A stretch of DNA of 32,000 bases from Planctopirus limnophila DSM 3776. Its GTDB lineage: Bacteria; Planctomycetota; Planctomycetia; Planctomycetales; Planctomycetaceae. The stretch covers positions 1,530,001 to 1,562,000 of the forward strand of contig NC_014148.1 of NCBI RefSeq assembly GCF_000092105.1, written 5' to 3'. Both the position numbers and the translations under genes were made by a program. Below are positions 5,200 to 31,725 of the stretch, in pieces. Under the pieces are notes generated by a model that saw only the letters and a program-made list of their open reading frames with translations, was not told the origin of the DNA and ran no database searches. Each line of letters begins with the position of its first letter. Positions within the stretch are counted from its first letter, which is position 1.

Positions 5200-5303
5200 G
5201 GTCGTTCTGCCAATCAAAAAATGCGTAGACTTCAGACCTCGTCACATTGATTGACCAGAATTGGAAGACGCATGAACTGACCGTGAGTTACCCGGATCAG
5301 AAA

Positions 5304-5921
5304 TCACTCTCCATGGATGAATGCCTTCCACGAACGATACTTAGAAGAATCCAGGTGTTGCTGCATAGTCGGGCTGCGAGATGGCTTGGAAGGAGTTGAC
5401 ATCAGCTTCATGCCGGCTTCGTGAGGAGTACGACCACCTTTGCGTACATTGCAATCCAGACACGAGCAGACAATGTTTTCCCAGGAGGTCGGCCCGCCTC
5501 GACTTTTGGGCATCACATGGTCGAGACTGAGTTTGTGCAGACTGAACTTCTTGCCGCAATATTGGCAGCGATTCTCATCTCTCAGGAAGATGTTGCGACG
5601 ATTGAATTTGACGGCATTGCGAGGCATGCGATCGTAAGACAACAGACGAATGATTTTCGGAACTTGAATTGCAAAGCTGACCGATTGCACCCAGTCCGCA
5701 TCCTCTTCGTAATCTCCCAAAGAGGCCTTGATCTGGCTGATTTCCAGCCACTGTCCAAAATCAAGGGATTGGTAGGAACCTTCTTCTACGGAAATAACTT
5801 CTGCCAATTCTTTCGCCAGCAGGCAAAAGGCACGCTTGGCGGAAATCACCTGCACGGCAGCGTAATGGCGATTCAATGCCAGGACGCTCGCATGCAGACC
5901 TGTCGTTCGACCCGCAATCAT
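5304..5921 (-). CDS. HNH endonuclease (about 200-aa McrA-like family), paralog 1
   Basis: CQYCGKK ... LSLDHVMPKSRGGPTSWENIVCSCLDCNVRKGGRTP forms a CxxC / H-N-N / CxxC beta-beta-alpha-Me finger. The N-terminal VLALNRHY..V domain is shared with the ORF at 20382-20978. Confidence 0.85.
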   Translation of the reverse strand: MIAGRTTGLHASVLALNRHYAAVQVISAKRAFCLLAKELAEVISVEEGSYQSLDFGQWLEISQIKASLGDYEEDADWVQSVSFAIQVPKIIRLLSYDRMPRNAVKFNRRNIFLRDENRCQYCGKKFSLHKLSLDHVMPKSRGGPTSWENIVCSCLDCNVRKGGRTPHEAGMKLMSTPSKPSRSPTMQQHLDSSKYRSWKAFIHGE

Positions 5922-6420
5922 CGCGACTTGATTCCTTTCCTGCTCCGGGCTGGATCATCCATCACGTTGGTGGCTCGACAAAAACACAAACTGTAAATCA
6001 AGACCCGTCACATACTAACCACAAACAATCAGTACACATTTCAGAGAGTCGTCATCCACAATTGGTTTGCGAATTGTAACCGTCAAAAAATCCTGCGGCA
6101 ATTCCCTAGTTGCGATCAGAACAATTCTGCTCCCTGTGGTCACATGAATTTCACTTCATTTTGATGTTTTCTTTGAGCTGACTGGAACTCGTCAGTCGAG
6201 CTGACCTGAACCTGCGAAAAAGACACACTTCCCCAAAGCCAACAGGTTCGAGTGAAATCTTCTTTGTTTGTGGATCCCTGCCAGAGTCTAATGCGATTTG
6301 TCAGGTTCGCAGTTCTTTCGGGAAGAGACTCACCTCATGAGGGGGAAGTCTGTGTTTGCCCGGAGATTTGCTGGTGCGTCCATCGGCAAGATGGCGTTTC
6401 GGAACAGATAGGAACATCAC

Positions 6421-12572: not shown

Positions 12573-14219
12573 ATGTCCATGAATGATGTGACCACTCACC
12601 TGCTCGAAAAAGTTCGCCGACGGATGGCACTGGGCCAATGGGCTGAGCTTGCCATGCTCAATCTACTGGTGCTCACAGCTTCCATGACTGTACTCACCAT
12701 TGTGAATCGACTAACGGCATTTGCGCCGGAACAGATGATCATGTACGTCTGGCTGGCGATTGTCCCCGCAGCAGCACTACTGGCTGCCATTTTTCTGAAG
12801 CGGCCCACACTTTCGGAAGCGGCCCATCAGGTGGATCGTGCACTGGGCGAGAAAGATCTGTTTTTGACAGTATCTCGTCTGTCGTCATCCGTGGGAGAGT
12901 ATCAGCCTGTCGTCCTGGCTGTGGCCCATGCCAAAGCCCAATCCGTGGTGCCAGCCAAAGTGTCACCCTGGAATCCTTCACGAAGAATTCGTCCACTGCT
13001 CGGCTTAATTTTGCTGGCAGGCGGAATCCAATTCTTTCTTCCCCAGTGGGATCTCTTTGGCAATCGCGCACAGGCCGCCGTTATTGAGCAGCGTTCGGCT
13101 CAACTGAACCTCACTCGCAAGATGACAGAAGTTCGCAAGACCGAGCTCAAGCGGGCCCAGGAATCACGGGACACCACTCAAGACCAGCAGCTTGAGGAAA
13201 ATCTCAAGCTCGCATTCCAGAAAATGGAACCATCCCGCAAAGAAGAAAACCGCAAAGAATTGTTGAAGCAGCAGAAAGAGATCAGCCAGCAGTGGAAGGT
13301 CAAAGCCGCTTCGAAAAGTTCACCTTCGGCCAGTCGATCATCCCCCTCTGAAGAAGGTCAGAAATTTGGAGATGAAGAGACCGAGACCTTGAGGAAAAAG
13401 GCCAAAGAGGCGTTGCGCTCGGGCAATATGCAACCTCTCAAAGAGACGATGGAGCAAATTAAGGACGAACTGGAAAAGCTGGCCAAGACAGAAGACCCTG
13501 TCGAGCGGGCAGAGAAGCTGGAACAATTGAAAAAGCGGCTGGAAAATCTCGAAAAGCTCGCTCGGGAAGAGTTCGGTTCTGAGGAAATGGCCAAAGCCCT
13601 CGAACGAGCCCGGCAACAGGCTCAACTGGCCCAGAAAGATGGAGGAAATCCCAGCGAAGCCATGCAGGCTGCGATGGAATCGATGGAACTCTCTGAGATG
13701 GAACTCTCCCAGGCCATGGAGAATCTGAAGGACATGCAGAATCTGGAGAAAGCCCTTAAGGCAATTCAGGCTGCCAAAAAGCTCAACGAGCTTGACCCTC
13801 TCGATGGGGAAAAGTGCAAGCAGTGCCAGTCACTTTCTGATTATGAGAAGCTCTACAAGGAAATGCTGGCCAAATGCAATGGTCAAGGTGATGGACAAGG
13901 AAAAGGGAATGGTAATGGATTAGGAGGAGAAGGGATCGGCAGAGGTGGCAAAGCTCAGGAGGATGATTCGGTGGAAACATCCTTCGTTGATGAAAAGTCA
14001 CAATCTCAGGTCACTGCCGGTAAGATGCTCCTCTCGATCAAAACTCAAGGGTTGGGCGAAAAAGGTCAGGCGAGCGAAGATTATCGAAAAGCCGCCACGG
14101 CAGTGAAGCAGGGCGTTGCCGAAGCCATCCAGCAGGAGCAGATTCCCCCGGGTTATCATGAGTCGATCAAGTCCTACTTCGATCAGGTCGCTCCAGAAAA
14201 ATCGGGATCTGACAAGTAA
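12573..14219 (+). CDS. hypothetical membrane-anchored coiled-coil protein (E/K-rich)
   Basis: 548-aa ORF with three N-terminal hydrophobic segments. A long E/K/Q-rich region is predicted coiled coil by eye. A Gly-rich tract (GQGDGQGKGNGNGLGGEGIGRGG) follows, then a C-terminal IPPGYHESIKSYFDQV tail. Confidence 0.7.
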   Translation: MSMNDVTTHLLEKVRRRMALGQWAELAMLNLLVLTASMTVLTIVNRLTAFAPEQMIMYVWLAIVPAAALLAAIFLKRPTLSEAAHQVDRALGEKDLFLTVSRLSSSVGEYQPVVLAVAHAKAQSVVPAKVSPWNPSRRIRPLLGLILLAGGIQFFLPQWDLFGNRAQAAVIEQRSAQLNLTRKMTEVRKTELKRAQESRDTTQDQQLEENLKLAFQKMEPSRKEENRKELLKQQKEISQQWKVKAASKSSPSASRSSPSEEGQKFGDEETETLRKKAKEALRSGNMQPLKETMEQIKDELEKLAKTEDPVERAEKLEQLKKRLENLEKLAREEFGSEEMAKALERARQQAQLAQKDGGNPSEAMQAAMESMELSEMELSQAMENLKDMQNLEKALKAIQAAKKLNELDPLDGEKCKQCQSLSDYEKLYKEMLAKCNGQGDGQGKGNGNGLGGEGIGRGGKAQEDDSVETSFVDEKSQSQVTAGKMLLSIKTQGLGEKGQASEDYRKAATAVKQGVAEAIQQEQIPPGYHESIKSYFDQVAPEKSGSDK

Positions 14220-18360: not shown

Positions 18361-20214
18361 ATGCCTAGAAGAGTGTGGGTTCTCGCTATGTCTGCAGCGG
18401 CTGCACTCGCTCCCAGCCTGTGCCCGGCTGCTGAAACTTCAACAACCAAGCCAGCCGGACGGATTGCTGCGACACCATCGGCCGATGTGCCGACGAAGTA
18501 CTCGCGAACTCAGCCTGCACAGGCCGGGGCTGGTACTAGCAGCACCAGTTCTAGCAAATATAGTGAGCTATTTGGTGAAGCTCCCAAGGCGACGCCTGTT
18601 AAAGATAGTAAAGTCACTGGAGCTTCAGCCAAATCCGCAGCACCTGATAAAACCGGTGCGATGCGTGCCGGTGGAGAGCGAACCGCTGCCTGGAGCAGTG
18701 AGACCGATAACGACGCTCCATTAGGTACAGCGGCCTTCAAGAAGGCCGAAGGGAATAACAGTTTTATTCAGCCTGTGCGTCATACAGAAGAACGAGCCGC
18801 GAGCAGCACTCCTAAAGCGAACAGCACCTCTCGCGTCGATCTTGCTCCACAGATTCCTTCACTGAATGTGGAGTGGGTCCGCAGATCCGATATCAACGTC
18901 GGTCAAGAATGCACGGTCGATCTGATTGTTCGCAACACGGGGACAACGACAGCGTCAAAAGTTTCGGTTGATGGCTTTTTCCCGACAACCGTTCGCTTGA
19001 CCAGTGCTGTGCCAAAACCAGCGACCATTACCGATCATCTCACTTGGAACATCGAAGCGATTCCTGCCGGTAGTGAGTACAAAGTTACCATCAAGATGAT
19101 TCCCAGCCGTCGTGGCGAGCTCGCAACGAACGCCACTGTCCGCCTGACAGGTTCGGCTTCCGCTGCCTTCCGCGTGGAAGAGCCTTTGCTCAAGGTCGCA
19201 CTCAAGGGGCCATCAGACATCATGGTCGGTGATCCTGCATCACAGACAGTGGTGATTTCTAACCCTGGCAGCGGTATTGCTCACGATGTCAAGCTCGACG
19301 TCACGTTGAGCGAAGGGCTCGAATGCAGCAAGGGTAGTCAGTTTGTCATGGATGTGGGTTCGATCAATGCGGGTGAATCTCAGACGATTCGACTCCCTGT
19401 GGCTGCTGTCAAAGGTGGCCGTCAAACTGTGACGGTCGTTGCCACCAGCACCTCGGATGCAGGTCATACCGCATCGTCTGTCATCAATGTTCTCGCACCT
19501 GCACTTCAGGTCGCCATCGAGGGGCCTGGCTTGCGATACAAAGGTCGTAATGCCAAGTATGTCGTGACAGTCAAGAACGACGGAAGTGTCCCGACCACCA
19601 ATGTACGTGTCACTCAGAATGTGGCTGAAGGCTTTGAATTTGTATCGGCAGATAAGGGTGGAAAGTTCGATTCCAGCCGCAATCAGGTTTCCTGGCTCGT
19701 GAGTCGGATTGAGCCGAATCAATCTGTCAATCTGATCTGCGAATTGACTGCCAATGCTCTGGGTTCGTTTGCCATTACCGCTCAGGCTGCCAACGACACC
19801 GCCTCCATGGTGGAAGCCTCAACAACAACGAACGTCGAAGGTTCTTCAGCACTCTCGATGAAGGTGATCGATCTGGATGATCCTGTCGAAGTGGGTGGCG
19901 AAACAGCCTACGAAATTCGAGTTTCCAACGAAGGGACCAAGGCCGCGACAGGTGTCACTGTCACTTGTGATCTGCCCGCCGGTCTGGAATTGATCAATGC
20001 CCGGGGTGCGACAGAAGGCATCAGCGATGGTCGCATCGTCGGCTTCAAACCACTGGCCAGTCTGGCTCCAGGAACCGAAGCGATCTTCCGAGTTCATGTT
20101 CGCAGCACACAGGAAGGGAATCTCCGCTTCCGGGCCCGCGTCACCAGCAACTCGATCGAAGAACCACTGCTGATCGAAGAACAAACCAAGTTCTACTCAG
20201 ACGTTCGTCGCTAA
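18361..20214 (+). CDS. DUF11 (conserved repeat domain) envelope protein with four tandem Ig-like repeats
   Basis: ggaaggag RBS before the ATG. Signal peptide MPRRVWVLAMSAAAALAPSLCPAA, then a low-complexity S/T/A/P linker. Four repeats of about 110 aa follow the pattern VG(x)xxxYxIxVxNxGxxxAxxVxV...P.G.., typical of DUF11/TIGR01451 repeats. Confidence 0.82.
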   Translation: MPRRVWVLAMSAAAALAPSLCPAAETSTTKPAGRIAATPSADVPTKYSRTQPAQAGAGTSSTSSSKYSELFGEAPKATPVKDSKVTGASAKSAAPDKTGAMRAGGERTAAWSSETDNDAPLGTAAFKKAEGNNSFIQPVRHTEERAASSTPKANSTSRVDLAPQIPSLNVEWVRRSDINVGQECTVDLIVRNTGTTTASKVSVDGFFPTTVRLTSAVPKPATITDHLTWNIEAIPAGSEYKVTIKMIPSRRGELATNATVRLTGSASAAFRVEEPLLKVALKGPSDIMVGDPASQTVVISNPGSGIAHDVKLDVTLSEGLECSKGSQFVMDVGSINAGESQTIRLPVAAVKGGRQTVTVVATSTSDAGHTASSVINVLAPALQVAIEGPGLRYKGRNAKYVVTVKNDGSVPTTNVRVTQNVAEGFEFVSADKGGKFDSSRNQVSWLVSRIEPNQSVNLICELTANALGSFAITAQAANDTASMVEASTTTNVEGSSALSMKVIDLDDPVEVGGETAYEIRVSNEGTKAATGVTVTCDLPAGLELINARGATEGISDGRIVGFKPLASLAPGTEAIFRVHVRSTQEGNLRFRARVTSNSIEEPLLIEEQTKFYSDVRR

Positions 20215-20281
20215 CAGGTGTTGGTTCATCGACGAGCCATGCGTGCCATCGATCGCACCATTTGAAGTTGCCTGAAGACTT

Positions 20282-20325
20282 AAAGCTGGCGGTTAGAGAA
20301 GATTCTCTAACCGCCAGCTTTTTTT
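20282..20325. terminator. strong hairpin terminator between convergent genes
   Basis: 18-bp perfect stem aaagctggcggttagaga / tctctaaccgccagcttt with a 4-nt loop. It is followed on the + strand by a T-run (the run of eight T at 20319-20326 includes the last three stem bases). It lies between the DUF11 gene (+) and HNH paralog 2 (-). Confidence 0.85.
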
Positions 20326-20381
20326 GATGCCTATGCAGCATCATTCGTTTCCGCGTTCGTCGGCTGGTTGGTTGCAATGAG

Positions 20382-20978
20382 TTACGAACCATCCAGTTCG
20401 ACTGTCCAGTAGGCTTCACTCAGGAACTTTCTCCAGCTTTGAATCTTCAGATTGTGCCGGGAGTAGAGTGGCTGCCATGTGGGGCGAATTGGCATTTTCC
20501 GCAGGGGCATATGGGCTTCCTGAGGCGTGCGGTTCGCTTTTTTGTTGTTACAGGCAATACACGCCAGTACACAATTCTCCCAGGTGCTGGTTCCTCCACG
20601 CGACCGCGGTTGAACATGGTCGATCGTCAGTTCTTCTGAACCAGGTTTTGCGTCACAATACTGACAGGTATACTGGTCCCGTTTGTAGAGATTCAGCCGA
20701 CTGAATGTCACCACTTGGCGGGGAACTCGATCATACCCGGTTAATGTGATCACCTCAGGGACGCGCAGGCGGAATGTGACCGATTGTACGAAGGGCTTAT
20801 CCTGCTGAGGGATGAGTCTCGACCAGTCTTGCCAGGTATAGAGTTGATAATCAGCAGGGTCAACAATGCGCGCTCTGCCACTGGCAACTAGAGATAATGA
20901 GCGTGCGACCGAAGCGACACCGACCGGCTGCCAGTTTCGATTGAGCACCAGAGTGGGTCTTGTCAACATGGCAACCAC
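20382..20978 (-). CDS. HNH endonuclease (about 200-aa McrA-like family), paralog 2
   Basis: CQYCDAK ... LTIDHVQPRSRGGTSTWENCVLACIACNNKKANRTP. Same architecture as 5304-5921, including the N-terminal LVLNRNWQPV domain. GTG start with aaggaaaggag upstream. Confidence 0.85.
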   Translation of the reverse strand: MVAMLTRPTLVLNRNWQPVGVASVARSLSLVASGRARIVDPADYQLYTWQDWSRLIPQQDKPFVQSVTFRLRVPEVITLTGYDRVPRQVVTFSRLNLYKRDQYTCQYCDAKPGSEELTIDHVQPRSRGGTSTWENCVLACIACNNKKANRTPQEAHMPLRKMPIRPTWQPLYSRHNLKIQSWRKFLSEAYWTVELDGS

Positions 20979-21011
20979 AATGTCTGCTCCTTTCCTTGAA
21001 GAAGTCGTCGA

Positions 21012-21037
21012 ATCGAAAGTTCTAAAATACTTTCGAT
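21012..21037 (-). promoter_or_regulatory. 9-bp inverted repeat between the tRNA array and HNH paralog 2
   Basis: atcgaaagt tctaaaat actttcgat has a perfect 9-bp stem and an 8-nt loop, with no T-run after it on the minus strand. It could be a processing or attenuation hairpin or an operator. Function is unknown. Confidence 0.3.
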
Positions 21038-21171
21038 AGTTATTAGTGCGAAATGCTGACTCTCCGGCCCTCGCCTGTGGTCGATCTCGTCATCATCGCC
21101 AATAGGTAGGTACCTTTTTCTTCAGCAGGTTGGGCTGGAGTCTTTCGAAGAGGCGAAGGGCGCAGCGCCAT

Positions 21172-21247
21172 TGATCAGAGTGGGAGTTGAACCCACAAAC
21201 TCACCACGTTCTCGACATGGCCGCTTTTCCAGTTTGCGTATCTGATC
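21172..21247 (-). tRNA. aberrant tRNA-Leu(GAG)-like gene lacking the long variable arm (possible pseudogene)
   Basis: Minus-strand fold: GATCAGA TA CGC AAACTGGAAAA GCG G CCATG TCGAGAA CGTGG TGAGTTT GTGGG TTCAACT CCCAC TCTGATC A. Acceptor is 7/7. The 3-bp D stem and 11-nt D loop match the neighbouring Leu(CAA). It has C33, C10 and only a 7-nt variable region. Confidence 0.4.
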
Positions 21248-21273
21248 GTCTCCGCGAATCGATTCTCGATAAT

Positions 21274-21358
21274 TGATCAAGGGGAGAGTCGAACTCCCAA
21301 GCCCGAATCGGGCACGACGTTTTGAGCGTCGCGTGTCTACCAGTTGCACCACTTGATC
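21274..21358 (-). tRNA. tRNA-Leu(CAA), class II
   Basis: GATCAAG TG GTG CAACTGGTAGA CAC G CGACG CTCAAAA CGTCG TGCCCGATTCGGGCTT GGGAG TTCGACT CTCCC CTTGATC A. All stems are perfect and the long variable arm is GCCCG/CGGGC. No CCA is encoded. Confidence 0.9.
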
Positions 21359-21473
21359 GTGTAATTCGGCTCATTGAAGGTTGGTCATCGAACTTCCTGT
21401 TCAACCCATTTCTGAAAATCGTCCGGAATGCGTGACGAGTGAGTTCTATTTCATATAGAGCCGCTTCTATGAT

Positions 21474-21555
21474 TGCGTCGGGACGGATTCGAACCATCAA
21501 TGCCCGCAGGCGGGTGCGTTACAGCCACTTGAGTACGCCCATACTCAGCCGACGC
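21474..21555 (-). tRNA. tRNA-Tyr(GTA)-like, class II, with weak anticodon stem
   Basis: GCGTCGG CT GAG TATGGGCGTA CTC A AGTGG CTGTAAC GCACC CGCCTGCGGGCATT GATGG TTCGAAT CCGTC CCGACGC A. Acceptor is 7/7 and the layout parallels bacterial tRNA-Tyr. It has C8 and only three Watson-Crick pairs in the anticodon stem (A.C and G.G at the ends). Confidence 0.6.
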
Positions 21556-21569
21556 TTGAAATCATGCAC

Positions 21570-21640
21570 TGCACTCAGCGGAATTTGAACCAGCTCTTCC
21601 GTCATGGCAAGACGGGTTATTGGTGCTACATCATGAGTGC
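21570..21640 (-). tRNA. tRNA-Gly(GCC)-like with degenerate D-arm
   Basis: GCACTCA TG ATGTAGCACCAATAAC CCGTC TTGCCAT GACGG AAGA GCTGG TTCAAAT TCCGC TGAGTGC A. The acceptor (7/7) and anticodon stem are perfect. The 16-nt D region has no pairable stem and no GG. The T stem has a C.U mismatch and G53.U61. Confidence 0.55.
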
Positions 21641-21718
21641 GTAGTTTGTGTGGATGAGGTCGATCTCTCGTAAATTCGAAGATATCTGTTCTCAGGATTC
21701 AGACCCTGAGATGCTGGA

Positions 21719-21790
21719 TGGGGTTGGAGGGATTCGAACCCCCACGGAACGAGTTAAAAGCTCGATGTGCTACCATTACACCACAACCCC
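21719..21790 (-). tRNA. tRNA-Lys(TTT)
   Basis: GGGGTTG TG GTGT AATGGTA GCAC A TCGAG CTTTTAA CTCGT TCCGT GGGGG TTCGAAT CCCTC CAACCCC A. Canonical invariants are present (U8, G10, G18G19, G53-C61, U33). The only mismatch is U.U at 27:43. Confidence 0.9.
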
Positions 21791-21894
21791 AATAGGGAGG
21801 GGCGGGGCGTTTATCGGGATTATCGATAGTCATCAGGGAGTCTTTACTATTGAATCAAGATGAATTGGTTGCGGAACAAATCTGAACGAAAGAG

Positions 21895-21966
21895 TCGGGA
21901 AGGTCAGAATCGAACTGACTTCGTCGTGTGCCCAAGACACGCGGGCGGCCGGTGCCCTTCATCCCG
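21895..21966 (-). tRNA. tRNA-Pro(TGG)-like
   Basis: CGGGATG AA GGGC ACCGGCC GCCC G CGTGT CTTGGGC ACACG ACGAA GTCAG TTCGATT CTGAC CTTCCCG A. C1-G72 is typical of bacterial tRNA-Pro, and the D, anticodon and T stems are perfect. It has A8 instead of U8 and a U.U mismatch at 6:67. Confidence 0.72.
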
Positions 21967-21976
21967 AATGATTCAT

Positions 21977-22049
21977 TAGCTCGTGTGGGATTCGAACCCA
22001 ACCTGCCCAGCGTGAAAGGCTGGTAACCTCACCAGAAGTCGAACGAGCC
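21977..22049 (-). tRNA. tRNA-Glu(TTC)
   Basis: GGCTCGT TC GACT TCTGGTGA GGTT A CCAGC CTTTCAC GCTGG GCAGG TTGGG TTCGAAT CCCAC ACGAGCT A. The anticodon loop CTTTCAC is identical to E. coli tRNA-Glu. It has G1.U72 and a 49:65 mismatch only. Confidence 0.85.
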
Positions 22050-22097
22050 AGATTGTCTTTTCGTGAATTGTGATTCAGTTCTGAACTGGAAATGAAT

Positions 22098-22169
22098 TGG
22101 GCTGGAAGGCGCTCGAATCCTTGTCTTCTGGTCTTCAGCCAGACGCTACACCATCTCAGCTACCAGCCC
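22098..22169 (-). tRNA. tRNA-Phe(GAA)-like
   Basis: GGGCTGG TA GCTG AGATGGTG TAGC G TCTGG CTGAAGA CCAGA AGAC AAGGA TTCGAGC GCCTT CCAGCCC A. Acceptor is 7/7 and the anticodon stem is perfect. The T stem closes with A53.G61 instead of the near-invariant G53-C61. Confidence 0.72.
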
Positions 22170-22203
22170 TTAATTCGTTGCATAGAGCTTCAATATCAAC
22201 AGC

Positions 22204-22247
22204 AAGCCCGGCATCACACTGGCTGTTCAGCAGGTGATGCCGGGCTT
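22204..22247 (-). terminator. long hairpin between the sulfatase gene and the tRNA array (possible terminator or processing site)
   Basis: 14-bp perfect stem aagcccggcatcac / gtgatgccgggctt with a 16-nt loop. Only a weak T-containing tail follows on the minus strand, so the terminator call is tentative. Confidence 0.35.
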
Positions 22248-22630
22248 GATCAGCCGGGCGAACATCCCGCAGTTGTCACCTGAGTCGATAGAGCTCACTG
22301 GATAACTCGGATTCTGCATTAGCCGGATACTTTTCACGGATCAAAACGATCAAGCCTGAAAAATGCGGTACTTGGCTGTCGACTTGATGAAAACATGCCA
22401 CGGGGCTGTGTTTCCTCTGGGCATCTACCAGTTGTATGGCTTGAGATCCGCTCTGTTGGGACATGATGAAACTCTGCTACTCTCGATGCTCAGTGAATCA
22501 ATTGGAGGAATCACGCGATGCCTACAATTGCCGCCAGGAATGACAGAGGTTCACACACAGAAGTTCGCCCAAAAATGTAAAAAAGTCGAGGATATAGTTC
22601 AGACGGGTTTCTCGAACAGATCGTGGTCGG

Positions 22631-24094
22631 TTATTGACTTTCGCCACTCGTCGACTGTTTGGCTCTTTTTTCTGACTTCTCAAATTTTTGAGACGCTTTT
22701 CCCGATTGGCCAGAGCGGGGCTCGCCATCGCTTGCGACCTTGTTGCCACCACCCCAAAGTGGGGGCATGTTCTGTTGATTCCAGCGATCCCATTGCGCTT
22801 GCAGTTCGGCGACTTTTTCGGGCATGGAAGCCGCAAGATCTCTGGTTTCTCCCAGATCTTCTTTGAGGTCATAGAGCCTGGCAGCGGTCACGGGCTGTTT
22901 CCCTTTGCCTGTCAGCGTGTCAGCATTGGAATCGTAACGGACAAGTTTGTAATCGCCGGCACGGACAGCCATCTGCTCCCCAAATCGCCAGAAGAGTGCG
23001 GCGTGTGGAACTTCGCTTTGCTTTCCTTGAAGATAAGGAAGCAGATTAACGCCATCCGATTTAACATCTTTTTCTACACCTGCCACTGCGAGCGCAGTCG
23101 CTGTGAGATCCAACTGAATAACCGGTGAATCGAAGACCGCCGGTGCAATCTTGCCGGGCCATGAGACGACGAATGGAACTCTGATCCCACCTTCCAGAGT
23201 AGTACGTTTGGAGCCCCTTAAAGGGGTGTTGATTGAGCCATTAATGGTGACGCCGGGCATTGTCGGGCCGCCGTTATCACTGATGAACATGACCAGCGTT
23301 TTTTGCTTCTGCCCGGTGGTTTCCAGTTGCGTGAGGACTTTGCCAATCGCTTCATCCATCGCCAGCATCATGGCCGCATAAGTGCGGCGTTCTTGATCAG
23401 AGATGCTGGCCAACTTCGCCATGCGATCCTCCGTGGCATGCATGGGAGTATGGACGGCATTAAACGAAAGGTACAAAAACCATGGTTTGTCCCGATGTTT
23501 TTCAATAAATGAAACGGCTTCTCGACCAAAGAGATCCGTGGTGTAATCGATGGTTTTGACGGGCTCGTGACCGCGCAAAATTCCCTGGGCGTCGAAGAAG
23601 CTGTGTGCCCCTCCCAGAAAGCCGATGAATTCTTCAAACCCACGTTCTTGTGGGTGCATAGCGGGTTGCGAACCCAGATGCCACTTCCCTACCAGGCCCG
23701 TTGTATAACCGACCTGTTTCAATCGGTCGGCAATCGTCACTTCAGTTAATGGAAGACCGGTATTGGCACCTGACGGGTTGAACTCGTGTCCGAATCGCTG
23801 CTGATAACGCCCCGTGAGTAAACCGGCCCGGGTGGGTGAGCAGTAAGGGCCAGTGACATATCCGCTGGTAAATTGAACTCCCGATTTTGCCAAGGCATCG
23901 AGGTTGGGAGTCGGGATGTCTTTGCAGCCATGGAAGCCTACGTCTGCATATCCCATATCATCCCCGACGATCAGTAGGATATTGGGGCGATCTGCTGCAA
24001 TCACTGGGGTGATCACCAGAGCCAGCATGCAGAAAGCGAATGCAGAGATCTGTGAACAGCCTGCTTCCAATTGCCCGTACAACCATTGTCTCAT
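22631..24094 (-). CDS. arylsulfatase-family (formylglycine-dependent) sulfatase, secreted
   Basis: Signal-like N-terminus ending VIAADRPN. Then LLIVGDDMGYADVG metal-binding motif and the CSPTRAGLLTGR formylglycine signature. 487 aa. Confidence 0.9.
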   Translation of the reverse strand: MRQWLYGQLEAGCSQISAFAFCMLALVITPVIAADRPNILLIVGDDMGYADVGFHGCKDIPTPNLDALAKSGVQFTSGYVTGPYCSPTRAGLLTGRYQQRFGHEFNPSGANTGLPLTEVTIADRLKQVGYTTGLVGKWHLGSQPAMHPQERGFEEFIGFLGGAHSFFDAQGILRGHEPVKTIDYTTDLFGREAVSFIEKHRDKPWFLYLSFNAVHTPMHATEDRMAKLASISDQERRTYAAMMLAMDEAIGKVLTQLETTGQKQKTLVMFISDNGGPTMPGVTINGSINTPLRGSKRTTLEGGIRVPFVVSWPGKIAPAVFDSPVIQLDLTATALAVAGVEKDVKSDGVNLLPYLQGKQSEVPHAALFWRFGEQMAVRAGDYKLVRYDSNADTLTGKGKQPVTAARLYDLKEDLGETRDLAASMPEKVAELQAQWDRWNQQNMPPLWGGGNKVASDGEPRSGQSGKASQKFEKSEKRAKQSTSGESQ

Positions 24095-25858: not shown

Positions 25859-28800
25859 TCAAAGTGTCGAATACAGGCTCAATCCTTCTCCCTGATAGCT
25901 GTCATAAACATGCTGGTAGACATTGTCACACTTCTGGCTGTAAAGCTCTGGTGTGAATGGCCTCGGAAGATCATCCAGCACTTCCTTTACAGTGGAGTAC
26001 ACGTCGGCTCGCGTTCTCTGCTTCTTTCGCCAATCCAGAACCAACTTGGCTTGCTTTAGAGATTGCAGTACCCGACGCGCCACCTGCTTTACTTGCTTCC
26101 GCTCGGCTGGTGTCAGGTCTAACTCGGGCCGCATGAGGATATCAAAAATGGCCAGTTCTTCCTCAGTCAGTTGCTCGGATACACCCCGCTTATCCTCTTC
26201 CTTTAAGTCTTTGGCAAACGCCATCAGCTTGGCAAAGAAAGCTTCAACATCCATTCCTTTGTTGTACTCTTCAATCAGCGTCTTGAACTTATCCAACAGC
26301 TCAATGCGGGATTTGTTGAGTTGAACCATTCTGGTGAGTTTCTGGCTCACCAATGCTTTCAGCTTTTCTGCTTCCGTATGTTTCCGGCCTTTACTGAAAT
26401 GAGCCTTCAACGCCTCAAAATCAACTTCGCTCAAATCAATCAATGAAGTCTCTTCTGTGGCATGGATCACATAGCCAACAGTGGAAATAGATTCATCCAG
26501 CAGTTCTCCCACTTGATCCAGCAAATCATCAATGTTGGCTTTGTCGGTCAGATTGCGGATTTTCTCTGCCAGAACCACCAGACACGTTTTGATTGCCGCA
26601 AACTCGTTGGCTCTGGGGTCAGGCAATATGGCTTTGTAAAGCTTCACCACCTGGGCCACATGAAACAAAAACTGCTTCTTCAGGTCATCATTGAGGATGA
26701 TTTTTTCAACAGCATCATCCACGGCTTCCACCACTTCGGCTTCCACCAGCAAATGAGCGGCCTGGGCCAGTTCCGCAGCTTTGTGAAAACTCTCCGGGTT
26801 GGCGTCAATCACTCTTTCCAAGCTCACGCCGCGTGAATCACAAAACGCTCTGGCTTCCGCAATGGCTTCGTGGAGAGCTTCCACCAGCATCGTCTTTTTC
26901 TCAATCGGGCATTCACCCTCCTGGGCCTGCCCTGATGCTGCTGTACCGAAAATGGCCAATGCTTTTTGCAGGTCACGAAAAACGCCCACATAATCCACAA
27001 TCAGACCGTTGGTTTTTTCTCCAAACACCCGATTGGCTCGGGCAATCGTCTGCATGAGTGTGTGATTCTTCATCGGCTTATCCAGGTAAACCGTAGAGAC
27101 ACACGGAGCATCAAAGCCCGTCAGCCACATGGCACAGACAAAAACCAGACGGAAAGGGTCTTTGGGTTCCCGGAACTTCTTTTCCAGATCCTCATTCACC
27201 ATGCGTGCCCGATGCACGGTGATATCAAAGCCTTTCTCCTGGAAGTATTGAATTTCGTTCTGCTGCTGAGAAATCACCACGGCCATATCCGTGGATTCCA
27301 TGTAAGCAATTTTCTCTTGTAATACAGGCTGACGGATTGAATCGGCCACCAGCAATTGAGACTTCAGATCTGCCAGAAACGCACCCCAGTATTTCTGGAC
27401 TTTCTCATACATCTTCACTGCGGTGAGCTTATCGACACAGATCACCATTCCCTTGCCGCCACCCTCACGTCCCAGAAAATGGGCCACAATGTCTTCCGCC
27501 ACTTTTTCCAGGCGGTCGTCTCGGGTAATCAGGTGATATTCACGGGCAAATTCCCGTTCCAGCAAATCTTCCTGCTCTTCATTGAGTTCAGCCGATTCAA
27601 TCAGAGCGTCCAGATCGTCCTGGAAGTTTTCATTGGCCAGTTGCAGTTCGGGAATCCGGTTTTCGTAAAACAACCGGACAGTGGCACCATCCTCCACGGA
27701 CTGGCGGAAGTTATAGATGGAAACATAATCCCCAAAGACTTCTTTGGTCTTCTCCTCACCAGCCATCAGCGGAGTTCCGGTGAACCCGATAAACGCCGCA
27801 TTCGGCAAGGCGTTCCGCATATTCAAAGCCAACGTGTCATATTGGGAGCGGTGAGCCTCATCAGTCATGACGATGATGTTGCTGCGGTCGGAAAGTTTCG
27901 GGTACGTCTGACCTTTCTTGGTGCCGAACTTTTGAATCAGGGTGAAGATAAACCGGTGATCTTCCTGAAGAAGTTGCTTCAGATGTTCTCCACTCTGGGC
28001 CTGACACTCTTCAGTGGCCACTCCCGTATTGCGGAAGTTGCGGTAAATCTGGCCATCCAGTTCCGTGCGGTCGGTAATGACCAGAAACGTCCAGTTGCCG
28101 GGAACTTTCCGAAGGACTTTCTGCGCAAAGAAAGCCATGGAATACGATTTGCCGCTTCCCTGAGTGTGCCAGAAAACCCCTAACCGTCCTTGATTGGATT
28201 GAATCTGGTTGAGAGCTGATGTGGCATTATTCACTCCCAGAAACTGATGATTCTTGGCAGTAATCTTATAGAGCTGACCTTTCGACTCATCAAAGAGGGT
28301 GAAGTTCTCCACGAGATCCAGAAACTTCGTTTTCTCACACGTTCCCCGAATCAATGTTTCCAGAGAGATAATCCCTTTCTCTCCTTCACTGTTGATCCTT
28401 TTCCAATCGGCAAAATGCTCCAACCCTGCCGTCAGACTGCCAATCTTGGCTTCACTCCCGTTGGAGAGGATCACCAGAGCGTTGTACCAGAAGAGCTGAG
28501 GAATGGTGGTTTTGTAGTCTTGAAGGTTGCCTGAAAAGGCCTGCTCCAGCCTGCCGTGAGTCTTCTTTAACTCAATGAAAAGTAGTGGCAGGCCATTCAC
28601 AAAGCCGATCAGGTCTGTCCGTCGTTTGTAAACTGTTCCCGAAATCCAGAACTGAGAGACCAGCAGAAAATCGTTGTTGGCGGGCTGATTCCAATCGATC
28701 ACCCGCACGGTTTCATCCACATCGTCTCCATTCTCATCGGCATAAGAGACTTTCACGCCCTCCTTGAGGAGTTTGTAAACGTCTCGGTTGGCCTGAGCAG

Positions 28801-29056
28801 GAGCGGCGGCACTGCGGTCTTTTCCCAGTTCCTCAATAGCCAGTTGAACGGCATCATCCGGCAGGCTGGGATTCAGTTTCTCTAATGCAGATTTCAGCCG
28901 GGGCCAGAGAATCACATCACTGGTGGTTTCCCGTCCCAGCGTGGCGTTGGCTCCCACTTTCTCGGCAAAGCCATTCACCGTGGCATAACCCAGTTCCTGA
29001 AACAGGGCTATCGTGGGCTGTTCAACCAGTGCATCTTCAGTGTAAGGATTGATCAT
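25859..29056 (-). CDS. hsdR: Type I restriction endonuclease subunit R
   Basis: 1065 aa. N-terminal HsdR_N-like region, helicase motif I WHTQGSGKSYS, motif II IVMTDEAHRSQ, later SF2 motifs (FTGTP, QTIARANR). The C-terminal DUF3387-like tail has LTEEELAIFDIL. The ATG overlaps the upstream stop (ATGA). Confidence 0.95.
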   Translation of the reverse strand: MINPYTEDALVEQPTIALFQELGYATVNGFAEKVGANATLGRETTSDVILWPRLKSALEKLNPSLPDDAVQLAIEELGKDRSAAAPAQANRDVYKLLKEGVKVSYADENGDDVDETVRVIDWNQPANNDFLLVSQFWISGTVYKRRTDLIGFVNGLPLLFIELKKTHGRLEQAFSGNLQDYKTTIPQLFWYNALVILSNGSEAKIGSLTAGLEHFADWKRINSEGEKGIISLETLIRGTCEKTKFLDLVENFTLFDESKGQLYKITAKNHQFLGVNNATSALNQIQSNQGRLGVFWHTQGSGKSYSMAFFAQKVLRKVPGNWTFLVITDRTELDGQIYRNFRNTGVATEECQAQSGEHLKQLLQEDHRFIFTLIQKFGTKKGQTYPKLSDRSNIIVMTDEAHRSQYDTLALNMRNALPNAAFIGFTGTPLMAGEEKTKEVFGDYVSIYNFRQSVEDGATVRLFYENRIPELQLANENFQDDLDALIESAELNEEQEDLLEREFAREYHLITRDDRLEKVAEDIVAHFLGREGGGKGMVICVDKLTAVKMYEKVQKYWGAFLADLKSQLLVADSIRQPVLQEKIAYMESTDMAVVISQQQNEIQYFQEKGFDITVHRARMVNEDLEKKFREPKDPFRLVFVCAMWLTGFDAPCVSTVYLDKPMKNHTLMQTIARANRVFGEKTNGLIVDYVGVFRDLQKALAIFGTAASGQAQEGECPIEKKTMLVEALHEAIAEARAFCDSRGVSLERVIDANPESFHKAAELAQAAHLLVEAEVVEAVDDAVEKIILNDDLKKQFLFHVAQVVKLYKAILPDPRANEFAAIKTCLVVLAEKIRNLTDKANIDDLLDQVGELLDESISTVGYVIHATEETSLIDLSEVDFEALKAHFSKGRKHTEAEKLKALVSQKLTRMVQLNKSRIELLDKFKTLIEEYNKGMDVEAFFAKLMAFAKDLKEEDKRGVSEQLTEEELAIFDILMRPELDLTPAERKQVKQVARRVLQSLKQAKLVLDWRKKQRTRADVYSTVKEVLDDLPRPFTPELYSQKCDNVYQHVYDSYQGEGLSLYSTL

Positions 29057-29640
29057 GGGGCTGCCTCATGGATTCTTTGAAGCACCAGTTTCCATTCTGT
29101 GGTCACTCCCAGAGTTTCAGCCCATTGTGTGAGATAATCCCGGTCAATGGCGTCTTTCTGGATCAGCAGGATGCTGGCAATATCCCGCAGATGTTTTTCG
29201 GAACCCCCCTCCTGGTAGTACCGCAACTTCATCAGGATGATATTTTCCGGAGAACCGAACCAGGCATCATAAAAGCCGGGATTGGACAGCCTTTGTCCCA
29301 GGCTGATGTCCAACTGGCTGAAAGGCGTCTCTTTCCGCTGGATAATATCCAGTTTGAGGCCTGACGGAACATGAATGATGTTGAACTGGTGGCGGGTACG
29401 AATGGCTTCTGCCACAGCCGTGGTCGAAAGATAGAAATCTGGAGACGGAAATTCCTGATCCAGTTCAGCAATGTGGCTTTCTTGCAGATCCACCAGAAAA
29501 TCAATGTCGTTCGTAAAGCGGGCCTCACTGTAAGCCATGCTGGCCATGGAACCGACGACCCGGTACGGCACTCCCAGCCGTTCAAAGCAGTTGGCAGTCT
29601 TCTGCAACAGTTGAAAAGGTGTCAGGTCAGCGGGGGACAC
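29053..29640 (-). CDS. Pol-beta-fold nucleotidyltransferase (NTase) embedded in the Type I R-M operon
   Basis: VVGSMASMAYSEARFTNDIDFLV fits hG[GS]-x13-DxD, with a third acidic residue in GLKLDII. The C-terminal helical region is ENIILMKLRYYQEGGSEKHLRDIASILL. I prefer GTG 29640 as the start because the paralogous stub has ATG at the same codon. The longest ORF starts at 29697. The stop overlaps the hsdR ATG. Confidence 0.72.
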   Translation of the reverse strand: MSPADLTPFQLLQKTANCFERLGVPYRVVGSMASMAYSEARFTNDIDFLVDLQESHIAELDQEFPSPDFYLSTTAVAEAIRTRHQFNIIHVPSGLKLDIIQRKETPFSQLDISLGQRLSNPGFYDAWFGSPENIILMKLRYYQEGGSEKHLRDIASILLIQKDAIDRDYLTQWAETLGVTTEWKLVLQRIHEAAP

Positions 29641-29860
29641 GTTCAGTGGCTCCGTGACTGAGTCGGTTGGCAGCTTCCCGCAGAACCTGTTCTTCACTCC
29701 AATCCGGATGTTGCTGACGTATCGTCCCCCGGATCATTTCCCGGGCGGTTTCCCACATCCGAAATGCCTGAGTCAACCGTTCGGCGGGAGTCTTCTGACG
29801 AAGAATCTCCACCATCACAGGTTCCAGAATTTCAATAACGGGTTGGCGTGGTGGCTGCAT
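29603..29860 (-). repeat. 258-bp direct repeat, copy B (partner 24240-24497)
   Basis: See copy A. It spans the small gene and the first codons of the NTase gene. Confidence 0.85.
29627..29860 (-). CDS. 77-aa hypothetical protein upstream of the NTase (putative antitoxin-like or regulatory partner)
   Basis: ATG 29860 lies 2 nt after the hsdS TAG stop and gives MQPPRQPVIEILEP..., colinear with the 24264-24497 paralog. The tracked ORF start at 29890 would overlap hsdS. The 3' end overlaps the NTase start by 14 nt. Confidence 0.65.
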   Translation of the reverse strand: MQPPRQPVIEILEPVMVEILRQKTPAERLTQAFRMWETAREMIRGTIRQQHPDWSEEQVLREAANRLSHGATERVPR

Positions 29861-29862
29861 AC

Positions 29863-31725
29863 CTACGATCCTGCCTGCAACGTGAACCACTTCTGACGCA
29901 CCATCTTTGAAATCGTGTCGTCCACATTCTCAACAGAGAAATTGTTTTTGTCTCGCTTCCCGGGCCAGTTGTCGATTCCAGTTTGGATATTCTGCCGCGT
30001 GATGGGTTGGCCAGCGTCGTGAAGATCACAGACGACCTTAAAAATGGTCATCCATTTCCCCAGGCCACTCTTCCCGAATTTGGAGAGATCCTGCACGAAC
30101 TCCGTCACAAGGGCTGCTTTCTCTCCCAGAAGAGATTTTGCGTATTCAACACCTTTTGTGAATTTCCGACCGGGAAGCAGAATTTTCCCCTGATTATCAA
30201 ATCGCAACCAATCAAAGCCAGCGGCGGCAAAGACCGCTTTATGGCGAAGTTCCTGTGACCAGGGGCCAGCCTTCTGGGCGACAAATTTTGAATTGATGGC
30301 ATGCCTGCGGAGATGTTTCAGGCCGAACATGTGCTTCTGAATGACAAACTCGTTGTTTGGTCTATCTGGTGCCAGATGAAGAAGCTCTTGCAGTAACAAG
30401 CACAGAATCGCCGCATCGTCTTTGTAAGGTGTACCTGTTTCGGCAGTCGGAGATGAAACAATTTGCGGCTTTGGCGGTTGGATAACTTTTTCTACTTCCG
30501 GCTGTTGAAAGGTCGGTTCATCAAAATCGATTTCCAGAGACTCAACATCCAGTTCACCGCTGATGAGTTTGGGAAGTAAGAGGTCACGGGTTTTGCGAAG
30601 GATTTTGTTTTTTCTAAGGATATTTTCAATGTGCTTTACTACGGGGGTTGTAAGAACGTCAAACTTCTGAATTAAAAATGGTTGCGGAAGAATAATTTCA
30701 AGATCCGCTATCAATTTTGTTGTCAGACTTCCACGAGAGCTACCGTCAGAGATCTGCCGGAACTGGTCATACCTTTGCACTAAATCAAAAAATAAAAAAC
30801 TATCAGTAGTTTGCTTACCATCAGCCGTTACAGCAATTGTTGACTGATTGATGTAGCAATCTAGGCAAAGCATCGACGTTTGGCCACGAGTCTTGCCTTG
30901 GCCCGCACTTGCAATAACAGTGCAGCCAGATCGTGCAAAACGGGTACTTGAATTAGTCACGCCCTCCTGTGTGATTTTCTTTTCAGTCTCTGTAATAAAG
31001 GTGTTTCCGGTTTCGCCGGATGATAGCCACGGAATATCACCATCCCAGTATTCATTGACATTAGTTCTTGGTGTCCCTCCGCTAGTAATTCTTTCGCAAA
31101 TTGAATCCAATCGTTTAACCTGCCAACCCTCAGGGATTTTGCCGAGTGGGGAATCGACGAGCAGGGTGTTTTCGTGGCCTGGGAAGCGGAAGTGGACGAA
31201 CCATTCCCGGTAAATGGCCTGGGCCATCTCTTCCAGAATGGCAATTCGCCGGGTGTTGTTCTCAATCAGATCATCATACGCCGAAAGAATCCCCGCAATT
31301 TTGCGTTGGACTGGCTCGGATGGAAATGTCAACTGTAAACCGTTCAAAATTGTTAAAGTCAAGAACTTGGTTGCGGCACCTGTGGATATACTTTGCAAAT
31401 GTTCAAGCAAGGGCCACATAGAGTAGTAAAGGAAACGCGTGTTGAGTCGCGTGCAATCTTGTGGCGTAACAACATACGTGCGTTGATACGCGTCAAATCG
31501 TCCGTGAAAATACTTTAGTGGATATATGCCGTTGGCATTGTTTCCGGCGAGTAACACACATTCTGTATCGAAGGCAAAAGTGTTTGTGCGAAGCGTCTCT
31601 TGCGAGCATGTAAAAAAGGGATATGCACCGTTTGATACAGCAGCATTTGAATTCAGCTTGCCCGTCTTGAAAGTCACTAGATTGCTAAGGGCGTCTGTCG
31701 TCCAGCCATTTGGAGGCATATTCAT
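29863..31725 (-). CDS. hsdS: Type I R-M specificity subunit with an extra C-terminal domain of about 220 aa
   Basis: Residues 1-400 form two target-recognition domains separated by the conserved helix [36 protein letters not shown], ending with the second helix [18 protein letters not shown]. Residues 401-620 are additional (see findings). The ATG overlaps the hsdM stop (ATGA). Confidence 0.9.

Follow-up and report, generated by a model that had tools for sequence, protein, structure and literature searches.

A probable reduced descendant of a long accessory tRNA array, with its own HNH endonuclease gene, in Planctopirus limnophila

A 32,000-nucleotide stretch of the Planctopirus limnophila DSM 3776 chromosome (NC_014148.1, positions 1,530,001 to 1,562,000; hereafter the window) contains eight co-oriented transfer RNA (tRNA)-like genes, which occupy 998 bp of the minus strand (21172-22169) upstream of a gene encoding an HNH endonuclease. 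Comparison with related genomes indicates that this locus is probably a reduced descendant of a long accessory tRNA array (an L-array, or tRNA array unit) with an HNH gene of its own. We read the locus as a reduced array because the HNH gene lies inside long arrays in relatives, the eight genes keep the order of those arrays, and their sequence identities are highest to the genes of the same slots. About 30 tRNA genes would have been deleted in Planctopirus; the eight survivors retain the ancestral order and lie just upstream of the HNH gene. Rather than defining a new class, the locus belongs to a known one and has decayed to a late stage of reduction. L-arrays have been described as horizontally spread, supernumerary tRNA operons, which are present in some Planctomycetes and often contain a gene for an HNH "homing endonuclease" (PMC8421152).

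For comparison, 80 genomic loci were fetched with the HNH protein of the window (63-98% identity); loci are designated by L-numbers. The closest genomes are a Planctomyces sp. metagenome-assembled genome (MAG) with an HNH protein 98% identical to that of the window (L003) and Planctopirus hydrillae JC280, in which the identity is 97% (L004). L085 is a plasmid locus of Mycobacterium intracellulare and L086 a plasmid array of Nostoc. ARAGORN called six of the eight tRNA-like genes in the window (Phe GAA, Glu TTC, Pro TGG, Lys TTT, Leu CAA and Leu GAG). An RF00005 search with sensitive filters (gathering score 29 bits) gave scores of at least 29 bits for five of them, namely Lys, Phe, Leu(CAA), Leu(GAG) and Glu; Gly(GCC) with 26.5 bits and Tyr(GTA) with 15.5 bits in a partial match fell under the gathering score, and Pro was not listed. 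Gly and Tyr are tRNA-derived, as they share 74% and 88% identity, respectively, with genes that ARAGORN calls as Gly(GCC) and Tyr(GTA) in related arrays. Taken together, the two programs and the orthologue identities recover all eight minus-strand genes of the original prediction, which had been made by hand folding. The genes and the HNH gene are listed below in transcription order, with RF00005 scores in bits, percentage identities to the named orthologues and substitutions relative to P. hydrillae.

22098..22169, minus strand: tRNA-Phe(GAA), array type, with A53.G61 and G37; called by ARAGORN; 57.3 bits; 96% to the Phe genes of L008 and L011; two substitutions.
21977..22049 (ARAGORN 21976-22050), minus strand: tRNA-Glu(UUC), array type; 41.3 bits; 97% to the Glu gene of L017; no substitutions.
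21895..21966 (ARAGORN 21894-21966), minus strand: tRNA-Pro(UGG), array type, with A8 and U6.U67; 89% to Pro(TGG) of L008; no substitutions.
21719..21790 (ARAGORN 21715-21791), minus strand: tRNA-Lys(UUU), the most canonical member; 65.5 bits; 86-89% to the Lys genes of L009 and L079; three substitutions, each in a loop or from G-C to G.U.
21570..21640, minus strand: Gly(GCC) pseudogene; 26.5 bits, against 51.6 for the L008 orthologue; D arm, G18G19 and T stem degraded.
21474..21555, minus strand: tRNA-Tyr(GUA), array type, with a long variable arm, C8, A27.C43 and G31.G39; 88% to the Tyr gene of L017; one substitution.
21274..21358, minus strand: tRNA-Leu with a long variable arm and the anticodon CAA; called by ARAGORN; 48.7 bits; 93-94% to Leu(CAG) of L008, L018, L012 and L010.
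21172..21247, minus strand: Leu(GAG)-type gene with a 7-nt variable loop and C33, conserved and non-canonical; called by ARAGORN; 45.3 bits; 90% to L005 and L017.
20382..20978, minus strand: HNH endonuclease gene, the conserved protein part of the array unit; Pfam HNH, E = 1.5e-15; full-length match to phrog_16726.

All eight tRNA-like genes lie on a single strand with spacers of 10-115 nt, which fits the co-orientation and co-transcription distances of L-arrays. The discriminator is A (A73) in every gene, and CCA is not encoded in any of them. At 0.507, the GC content of the array region is close to that of the remainder of the window, which ranges from 0.46 to 0.55. Several near-universal tRNA positions are violated: U8 is replaced by A in Pro and by C in Tyr, G53-C61 by A53.G61 in Phe and U33 by C in Leu(GAG), and G18G19 is missing from Gly. 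A check of the sequence found all the irregularities reported by the hand folds, including the U6.U67 mismatch of Pro, the A27.C43 and G31.G39 mismatches of Tyr, the missing D stem of Gly and the 7-nt variable loop of the Leu-like last gene, and also the spacer lengths, the discriminators and the absence of CCA. An Rfam search of the leader and the array revealed no known RNA besides tRNA.

The HNH protein is 63-79% identical across Planctomycetaceae and Pirellulales. At least 10 co-oriented tRNA genes surround the HNH gene in 26 of the 80 loci and at least 30 in 11 of them, with a maximum of 39. These genes recur in the order Phe-Glu-Pro-Ile-Lys-Lys-Thr-Gly-Pro-Asn-Ser-Gly-Asn-Gln-Gln-Ala-Val-Leu-Leu-Asp-Leu-Tyr-Glu-Leu(CAG)-Met-Leu(GAG), which continues as Val-Thr-Ala-Ala-Ser-Arg-Ser-Arg-His-[HNH]-Trp-Thr-Arg-Arg-Arg-Cys. 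The full unit in related Planctomycetaceae consists of a promoter-like box, a leader open reading frame (ORF), a terminator hairpin, about 32-35 tRNA genes, the HNH gene and another 4-7 tRNA genes; orthologous units in relatives contain 32-39 tRNA genes. The eight genes of the window are in exactly the same relative order as in the full arrays. Moreover, their best matches have the same anticodon and occupy the same slot (Phe 96%, Glu 97%, Pro 89%, Lys 89%, Gly 74%, Tyr 88%, long-arm Leu 93-94% and Leu(GAG) 90%). The HNH ORF is co-oriented with the tRNA genes and begins 193 nt downstream of them, in line with the HNH linkage of L-arrays. The arrays of relatives thus back the original prediction that the divergent tRNA genes form an accessory-type array with a linked HNH endonuclease gene. 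Its remark that no well-described example was known in this gene context is not supported, since HNH-linked long arrays are known from cyanobacteria (PMC8421152) and from Mycobacterium plasmids, phages and chromosomes (PMC5966550, PMC12803027). Surveys also list such arrays in Planctomycetes (PMC8421152, PMC4758250).

Other arrays have been reduced independently, leaving Phe-Pro-Ile-Ser-[HNH] in L016, Phe-Ser-Ser-Ser-[HNH]-Cys-Gly in L021 and His-[HNH]-Arg in L041. At many related loci the HNH gene stands alone, and the number of tRNA genes at HNH loci varies between 39 and zero. In Planctopirus the loss can be seen in progress, with a Gly gene that is degraded in the window and for the most part deleted in P. 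hydrillae. A search of the spacers for relics of lost tRNA genes found none for Ile, Lys(CTT), Thr, Glu(CTC), His or Trp. One stretch resembles Val(GAC), and its position matches the order of the full arrays, in which Val comes after Leu(GAG):

21095..21142, minus strand: possible Val(GAC) relic, marginal; local alignment score 35, against shuffled sequences with a mean of 24.1, a standard deviation of 3.6 and a maximum of 35; blastn E = 0.39.

Constraint on the tRNA genes and spacers was measured by the substitutions between the window and P. hydrillae, with L003 as a second comparison. The seven non-Gly genes differ from P. hydrillae at 10 of 532 positions (1.9%), compared with 139 of 676 (20.6%) in the spacers (Fisher P = 1e-26). 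Gly shows 35% divergence and a 54-nt deletion. The divergence from L003 is 4.2% in Gly, 3.3% in the spacers and 0.6% in the other tRNA genes, and Gly, which evolves at the spacer rate, therefore serves as an internal neutral control. Synonymous divergence in the adjacent genes is 0.28-0.49. Nine of the 10 tRNA substitutions lie in loops or change G-C or A-U into G.U, so that pairing is kept. The exception is C39 to G in Tyr, which breaks the 31:39 pair; G39 occurs only in the window and in L001 and L002 and is private to this lineage. Judging by these substitution patterns, Phe, Glu, Pro, Lys, Tyr, Leu(CAA) and Leu(GAG) are kept as foldable tRNAs by purifying selection. Gly(GCC) is a pseudogene.

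The non-canonical features of the array recur in orthologues, except those of Gly, and the stems covary; we therefore regard the deviations as family traits. In the covariation tests, slid controls gave 30-50% paired cells. The Phe family has 95% of cells paired and nine pairs with double (compensatory) changes, and position 53:61 is a purine-purine non-pair in all 11 orthologues. For Leu(GAG), with 16 orthologues, 99.7% of cells are paired and 10 pairs show double changes; the short variable loop is found in every orthologue and C33 in most. In the Tyr family, 96% of cells are paired and six pairs show double changes; of its 13 sequences, 12 have C8 and 10 have A27.C43. Pro (98% of cells paired, three pairs with double changes) shares A8 with L008 and L077, that is, with only some of its orthologues. 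Leu-anticodon genes with a short arm (UAA, UAG, CAA and GAG; 73-79 nt) are standard in planctomycete arrays and also occur in the Nostoc and Mycobacterium arrays examined. Furthermore, the RF00005 scores in the window are on a par with those of the orthologues (Phe 57 and 53 bits, Glu 41 and 42, Lys 65.5 and 64, Leu 48.7 and 48.5, Leu(GAG) 45 and 40, respectively), save for Gly (26.5 and 51.6). As far as can be judged from the alignments, the odd features are inherited signatures of array-type isoacceptors and not random damage. A reading of the deviations as marks of the decay of individual genes is not supported; most are conserved array-type signatures backed by covariation. The conservation and covariation of such oddities as the A53.G61 of Phe and the short-arm Leu with C33 bear on the charging and use of these tRNAs.

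The presence of a co-oriented HNH endonuclease gene downstream of the array, as originally proposed, was confirmed by the Pfam HNH match of the ORF at 20382-20978. The dN/dS ratio (nonsynonymous to synonymous substitution rate) of this gene is 0.057 against P. hydrillae, which indicates strong purifying selection. Homologues are located in or beside arrays on two plasmids, one of Nostoc with 29 tRNA genes and one of M. intracellulare with 28, among which the HNH gene is embedded. A tblastn search with the HNH protein found 404 phage records, of which 268 are mycobacteriophages. When the predicted structure was used for a PDB fold search, the HNH domain alone was matched (Cas9 and Gme HNH), and the N-terminal domain had no match in that search. 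Apart from this unmatched N-terminal domain, the protein is an HNH nuclease of generic type. A hairpin beyond the HNH gene is likely the 3' end of the unit:

20282..20321, no strand assigned: 18-bp hairpin between the convergent HNH and DUF11 genes; found by a terminator scan, with a T-run on the plus strand.

A second HNH paralogue is encoded at 5304-5921 on the minus strand, between the G6PD and MDH genes. It has 205 aa, is 38% identical to the array protein and shows the same two-domain layout. No tRNA genes are near this paralogue, and Planctopirus contains at least two members of the family.

Array 5' ends were compared for 14 arrays from genomes and four from metagenomes. The following elements of the window lie at the corresponding positions upstream of Phe:

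22531..22585, minus strand: candidate promoter box (TTTTTGGGCGAACTT...TCTGTCATTCC), similar to an extracytoplasmic function (ECF)-type GAAC-N17-CRTCT; low confidence.
22276..22464, minus strand: 62-codon ORF at the position of the leader ORF, with its TGA inside a conserved GTGACA motif; protein not conserved.
22204..22247, minus strand: GC-rich hairpin (AAGCCCGGCATCAC...GTGATGCCGGGCTT), homologue of a terminator or attenuator; minimum free energy -34.7 kcal/mol, z = -6.3.

The upstream box differs from P. hydrillae at about 3 of 54 positions, compared with about 20% in the neighbouring non-coding DNA. It aligns with CGCGAAC...GCGCATCT, which lies 290-400 nt upstream of Phe in the full arrays, and it is also found in the reduced units L041 and L049. 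The leader ORF of relatives encodes 32-70 aa and ends in the GTGACA motif 33-40 nt upstream of the hairpin. Its indels between arrays are multiples of three, and the leader peptides of L008 and L041 are 40% identical (E = 1e-11). These peptides often start with MM and end in PLR followed by T, L or S (L008 1658-1834, L041 5404-5613, with equivalents in L011, L017, L018, L079, L077, L080 and L073). The 62-codon ORF of the window was rejected as a conserved protein gene, as its dN/dS is 0.74 against P. hydrillae and the substitutions are spread evenly over codon positions. Its peptide shows no similarity to the leader peptides of relatives (E = 3.5 with L008). The 5' half of this ORF (22400-22464) differs from L003 by about 13%, compared with 0-4% in other parts of the locus, and represents a hypervariable or recombined patch.

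A conserved GC-rich hairpin precedes the first tRNA gene in all 18 arrays with a 5' end. Most have a U-run after it, and hairpin and U-run are both present in 12 related arrays. In L008, L011 and L079 the hairpin ends 14-15 nt before Phe; this leaves no space for a separate promoter, and the tRNAs must therefore be transcribed through the hairpin. The stop motif of the leader ORF is present in 13 arrays, and in 10 of these it is the best partner of the terminator 5' arm within 200 nt; the duplex energies are -11.5 to -18.5 kcal/mol, compared with about -7 +/- 3 kcal/mol for the background. The hairpin of the window carries paired stem changes (UG...CA to CA...UG). Its U-run is interrupted (CUUGCUGUUG), and the terminator scan, which looks for a T-run, does not call it. 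In the window, the duplex of the stop motif and the 5' arm has an energy of only -10.0 kcal/mol, which 12 other segments upstream surpass; the value for P. hydrillae is -4.4 kcal/mol. The antiterminator pairing of the relatives is thus degenerate in Planctopirus. The control module lies directly before the HNH gene in L049, which has no tRNA genes, and before His-[HNH] in L041. A metagenome scan with the hairpin pattern yielded arrays at 4 of 80 loci, and the rest were unrelated terminators.

These features allow a tentative and rather doubtful proposal, namely that the planctomycete arrays and their HNH genes might be operons gated by a leader-peptide transcription attenuator that senses translation. 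A ribosome at the leader stop codon would mask the GTGACAYCGG antiterminator, whose pairing partner is CCGGUGUCAC, and the terminator would form. A slowed or stalled ribosome would free the antiterminator and permit read-through into the tRNA genes. The Planctopirus gate would have decayed, with a weak U-tract, a lost antiterminator and an unconstrained leader ORF, and the seven non-canonical tRNAs may now be constitutively expressed as selected parts of the translation apparatus. The short ORF of full arrays, which ends 33-40 nt before an intrinsic terminator and has a stop motif that pairs with the 5' arm, resembles the trp-type, ermC and cat leader attenuators. Unlike those, the planctomycete leaders have no run of regulatory codons; in the window, moreover, the ORF lacks conservation, and both the U-tract and the antiterminator pairing have degenerated. 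If true, such an attenuator would be a direct cis-acting reason for arrays being "cryptic but inducible by translational stress". The conserved module of box, leader ORF and terminator offers a testable hypothesis for array switching, and P. limnophila is culturable and genetically tractable.

Several observations weigh against the descent of the window locus from a long accessory array. A tRNA array unit has been defined by at least 20 tRNA genes and at least two tRNA genes per kb (Tran et al. 2016, PMC4758250). With eight genes in 998 bp, the locus has the required density and falls short of the required number. Pro and Tyr have low RF00005 scores, and the Tyr gene of the window has the G31.G39 mismatch. 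A sigma-70 promoter scan of 20200-22700 found no sites. Homology of the tRNAs to those of the Nostoc and Mycobacterium arrays was found for Phe alone (84% over 43 nt), and the other matches were generic T-arm similarity. Given this weak similarity and the differing gene order, common descent of the arrays across phyla is not established. Finally, some of the seven conserved genes may now be the sole genomic copies.

The last point leads to the alternative that the locus is a housekeeping operon, either originally or by later conversion, with the sole genes for some or all of the seven anticodons and with oddities that merely reflect the style of the lineage. We consider this unlikely. The very strong purifying selection on the seven genes would fit it, as would the degenerate U-tract and antiterminator partner of the hairpin in Planctopirus, which suit constitutive expression. 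Identity elements of the respective tRNA classes are also present, namely A73 throughout, G1-C72 and the long arm in Tyr, and C1-G72 in Pro. However, Gly(GCC) codons normally need a dedicated tRNA, and with the Gly(GCC) gene decayed or deleted at least this isoacceptor must be encoded elsewhere. The anticodon of the long-arm Leu also differs between sister species: it is CAA in the window and L003 and CAG in P. hydrillae and the long-arm orthologues elsewhere, by a change at position 36. About 30 array genes have been lost without replacement. In relatives, canonical off-array tRNAs of about 70 bits stand beside the arrays. The array tRNAs score 30-65 bits (one Lys 69.6), and the three off-array tRNAs in the flanks score 69.4, 70.1 and 71.9 bits. 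In L077, an off-array Val(GAC) of 70.1 bits lies beside an array Val(GAC) of 52.4 bits, and the two are identical at 44 of 73 positions. In addition, 66 RNA genes were reported for the genome (as P. limnophilus), which leaves room for a full set beyond these eight (PMC3035269). Five indirect lines of evidence point to a probable accessory role: the dead or deleted Gly(GCC), the CAG/CAA switch in Leu, the loss of about 30 genes, the TCA anticodons tolerated in relatives and the 66 RNA genes.

The opposite alternative, that the array is dead and consists of functionless pseudogenes from an old insertion, is very improbable. The Gly pseudogene, the fresh stem mismatch in the window Tyr and the disappearance of most of the ancestral array agree with it, as do the low model scores of Pro and Tyr and the decayed members in relatives, such as the Arg genes with anticodons changed to TCA. 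However, the seven other genes substitute tenfold more slowly than the spacers, with Gly at the spacer rate as an internal control, their substitutions keep the pairing, and covariation extends over deeper divergence. The suggestion of a decaying array holds in part, in view of the Gly pseudogene, the roughly 30 lost genes and the private, stem-breaking change in Tyr. A third alternative is also unlikely, in which the selected role of the tRNAs is to resist toxins that cleave or modify tRNA (anticodon nucleases, VapC, MenT/AbiEii), possibly including the neighbouring restriction-modification (R-M) and AbiEii genes. Such a role has been proposed in the literature for the arrays of phages and mycobacteria (PMC10264068, PMC12803027), and VapC is induced and some array tRNAs are cleaved in Anabaena (PMC8421152). 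The conserved deviations of anticodon loops and arms (G37 in Phe, C33 in Leu(GAG) and A27.C43 in Tyr) are also consistent with it. Against it, the anticodon loops of Lys, Glu, Pro and Leu(CAA) are ordinary, the conserved unit contains no toxin gene, the AbiEii match is under the Pfam cut-off, the 6-kb surroundings of the arrays outside Planctopirus contain no HsdR, HsdS or AbiEii homologue, and P. hydrillae has a rearranged R-M region. A reduced accessory array remains the preferred reading. On this reading, the tRNA genes and the HNH gene would be co-transcribed from the upstream box through the hairpin, the transcript would be cut by RNase P and RNase Z with CCA added later, and the products would form a supplementary tRNA pool. 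With about 30 genes lost and seven under tenfold constraint, the locus is a natural experiment, in which the survivors are either useful extras or replacements of housekeeping genes.

Type I R-M genes occupy 25859-31725 of the window, with HsdR, an AbiEii-like ORF and HsdS 3.7-9.6 kb from the array. Of the predicted R-M operon with a nucleotidyltransferase, the R-M genes are indeed present, but the nucleotidyltransferase amounts to a sub-threshold AbiEii match (ORF 29053-29697; 19.9 bits against a Pfam cut-off of 22.5, and no NCBIfam match). The AbiEii-like ORF overlaps the end of HsdR by 4 nt, and HsdS has two specificity domains. In P. hydrillae (L004 1400-2600), an AbiEii-like gene of 96% identity adjoins the sulfatase gene, with a canonical tRNA-Arg(TCT) adjacent, and HsdR was not found in the 12.6-kb locus. 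The R-M region looks like a variable island. The proposed link between the array and the R-M and nucleotidyltransferase genes did not survive the comparison, as arrays outside Planctopirus have no such homologues within 6 kb, the region differs between the Planctopirus species and AbiEii is sub-threshold; the proximity looks coincidental. A PrrC-like anticodon-nuclease system in the hsd operon was rejected on the same grounds, together with the lack of an NCBIfam match.

Among known systems, the trn operon of Anabaena sp. PCC 7120 (Santamaria-Gomez et al. 2021, PMC8421152) is similar in its tightly packed, co-oriented tRNA genes and, when the relatives are included, in the coverage of most amino acids. 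The Anabaena array, the only one examined by experiment, is silent and is induced when translation is impaired; its 26 genes give 23 aminoacylated tRNAs, and it aids survival (PMC8421152). Like L-arrays in general, the planctomycete units appear to be patchily distributed among relatives and include some pseudogenes, and their short-variable-arm Leu is also present in the Nostoc plasmid array. The linked HNH proteins belong to the same family, with 40-52% identity over the C-terminal two thirds. In contrast to the cyanobacterial arrays, the window locus is chromosomal, has eight genes and shows an unrelated gene order. The planctomycete HNH gene is embedded in the array or downstream of it, not upstream. 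Control also differs, with 9-nt repeats over the -10 box in the Anabaena operon and a leader ORF and terminator hairpin here.

The mycobacterial tRNA array units have one embedded HNH gene and redundant anticodons (PMC5966550, PMC12803027). Their tRNAs differ from the housekeeping ones in the D, anticodon and variable arms, and the array anticodons duplicate chromosomal ones (PMC12803027). They have been discussed as possible anti-defence devices (PMC5966550, PMC12803027, PMC10264068). The planctomycete arrays share with these units (Morgado and Vicente 2018, PMC5966550; Yano et al. 2026, PMC12803027) the single embedded HNH gene, which in L085 has 10 tRNA genes upstream and 18 downstream, and array tRNAs that duplicate off-array anticodons and diverge from the off-array tRNAs, a pattern that in planctomycetes was seen only for the Val(GAC) of L077. 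They differ in phylum, gene order and tRNA sequences, and the mycobacterial units lie on plasmids or phages with 26-27 genes, compared with eight chromosomal genes here. Phage tRNA clusters, such as those of T4 with SegB and of mycobacteriophages, likewise combine tRNA genes with a nuclease gene, and the window HNH protein is connected to phages by the 404 records and by phrog_16726. No phage genes flank the window locus, however, and SegB is a GIY-YIG enzyme and not an HNH enzyme. The window HNH protein, at most a candidate for homing, is under strong purifying selection (dN/dS of 0.057), and homologues persist at loci without tRNA genes.

In several MAGs the HNH locus is present two or three times, and the arrays differ in completeness (L005/L013, L007/L010, L018/L029, L056/L081, L057/L070 and L062/L064/L077), which suggests duplication, mobility or mixed strains. 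Anticodons for stop codons were also observed in arrays. Two Arg-type genes have changed to TCA (L009 6978-7049; L017 5656-5728), and the Nostoc plasmid array contains a gene with the anticodon CTA, labelled "Pyl" by ARAGORN (L086 6163-6234). Such genes may be decayed or may be potential suppressors. Just downstream of the full array in L018, two segments (5244-5318 and 5957-6018) gave sub-threshold matches to YrlA (Y RNA-like) of 39-41 bits, with a gathering score of 69; they may be mere tRNA-like modules.

The flanks of the array are typical of a planctomycete chromosome and encode a sulfatase, a GFO/IDH/MocA oxidoreductase with a twin-arginine translocation (TAT) signal, a xylose-isomerase-like TIM-barrel protein, OmpH, a DUF11 protein, G6PD and MDH. 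The window, L003 and L004 share the order sulfatase, array, HNH, DUF11 and OmpH. Among the loci compared, no synteny of flanking genes was found outside Planctopirus, and vertical and horizontal histories are therefore not separable. Elsewhere in the window, the segment 13001-14000 is strongly anomalous in composition, with an AT skew of 0.30 and a GC skew of 0.11. It lies inside a 548-aa ORF (12573-14219) that adjoins a 982-aa ORF (9451-12399), both without a Pfam match.

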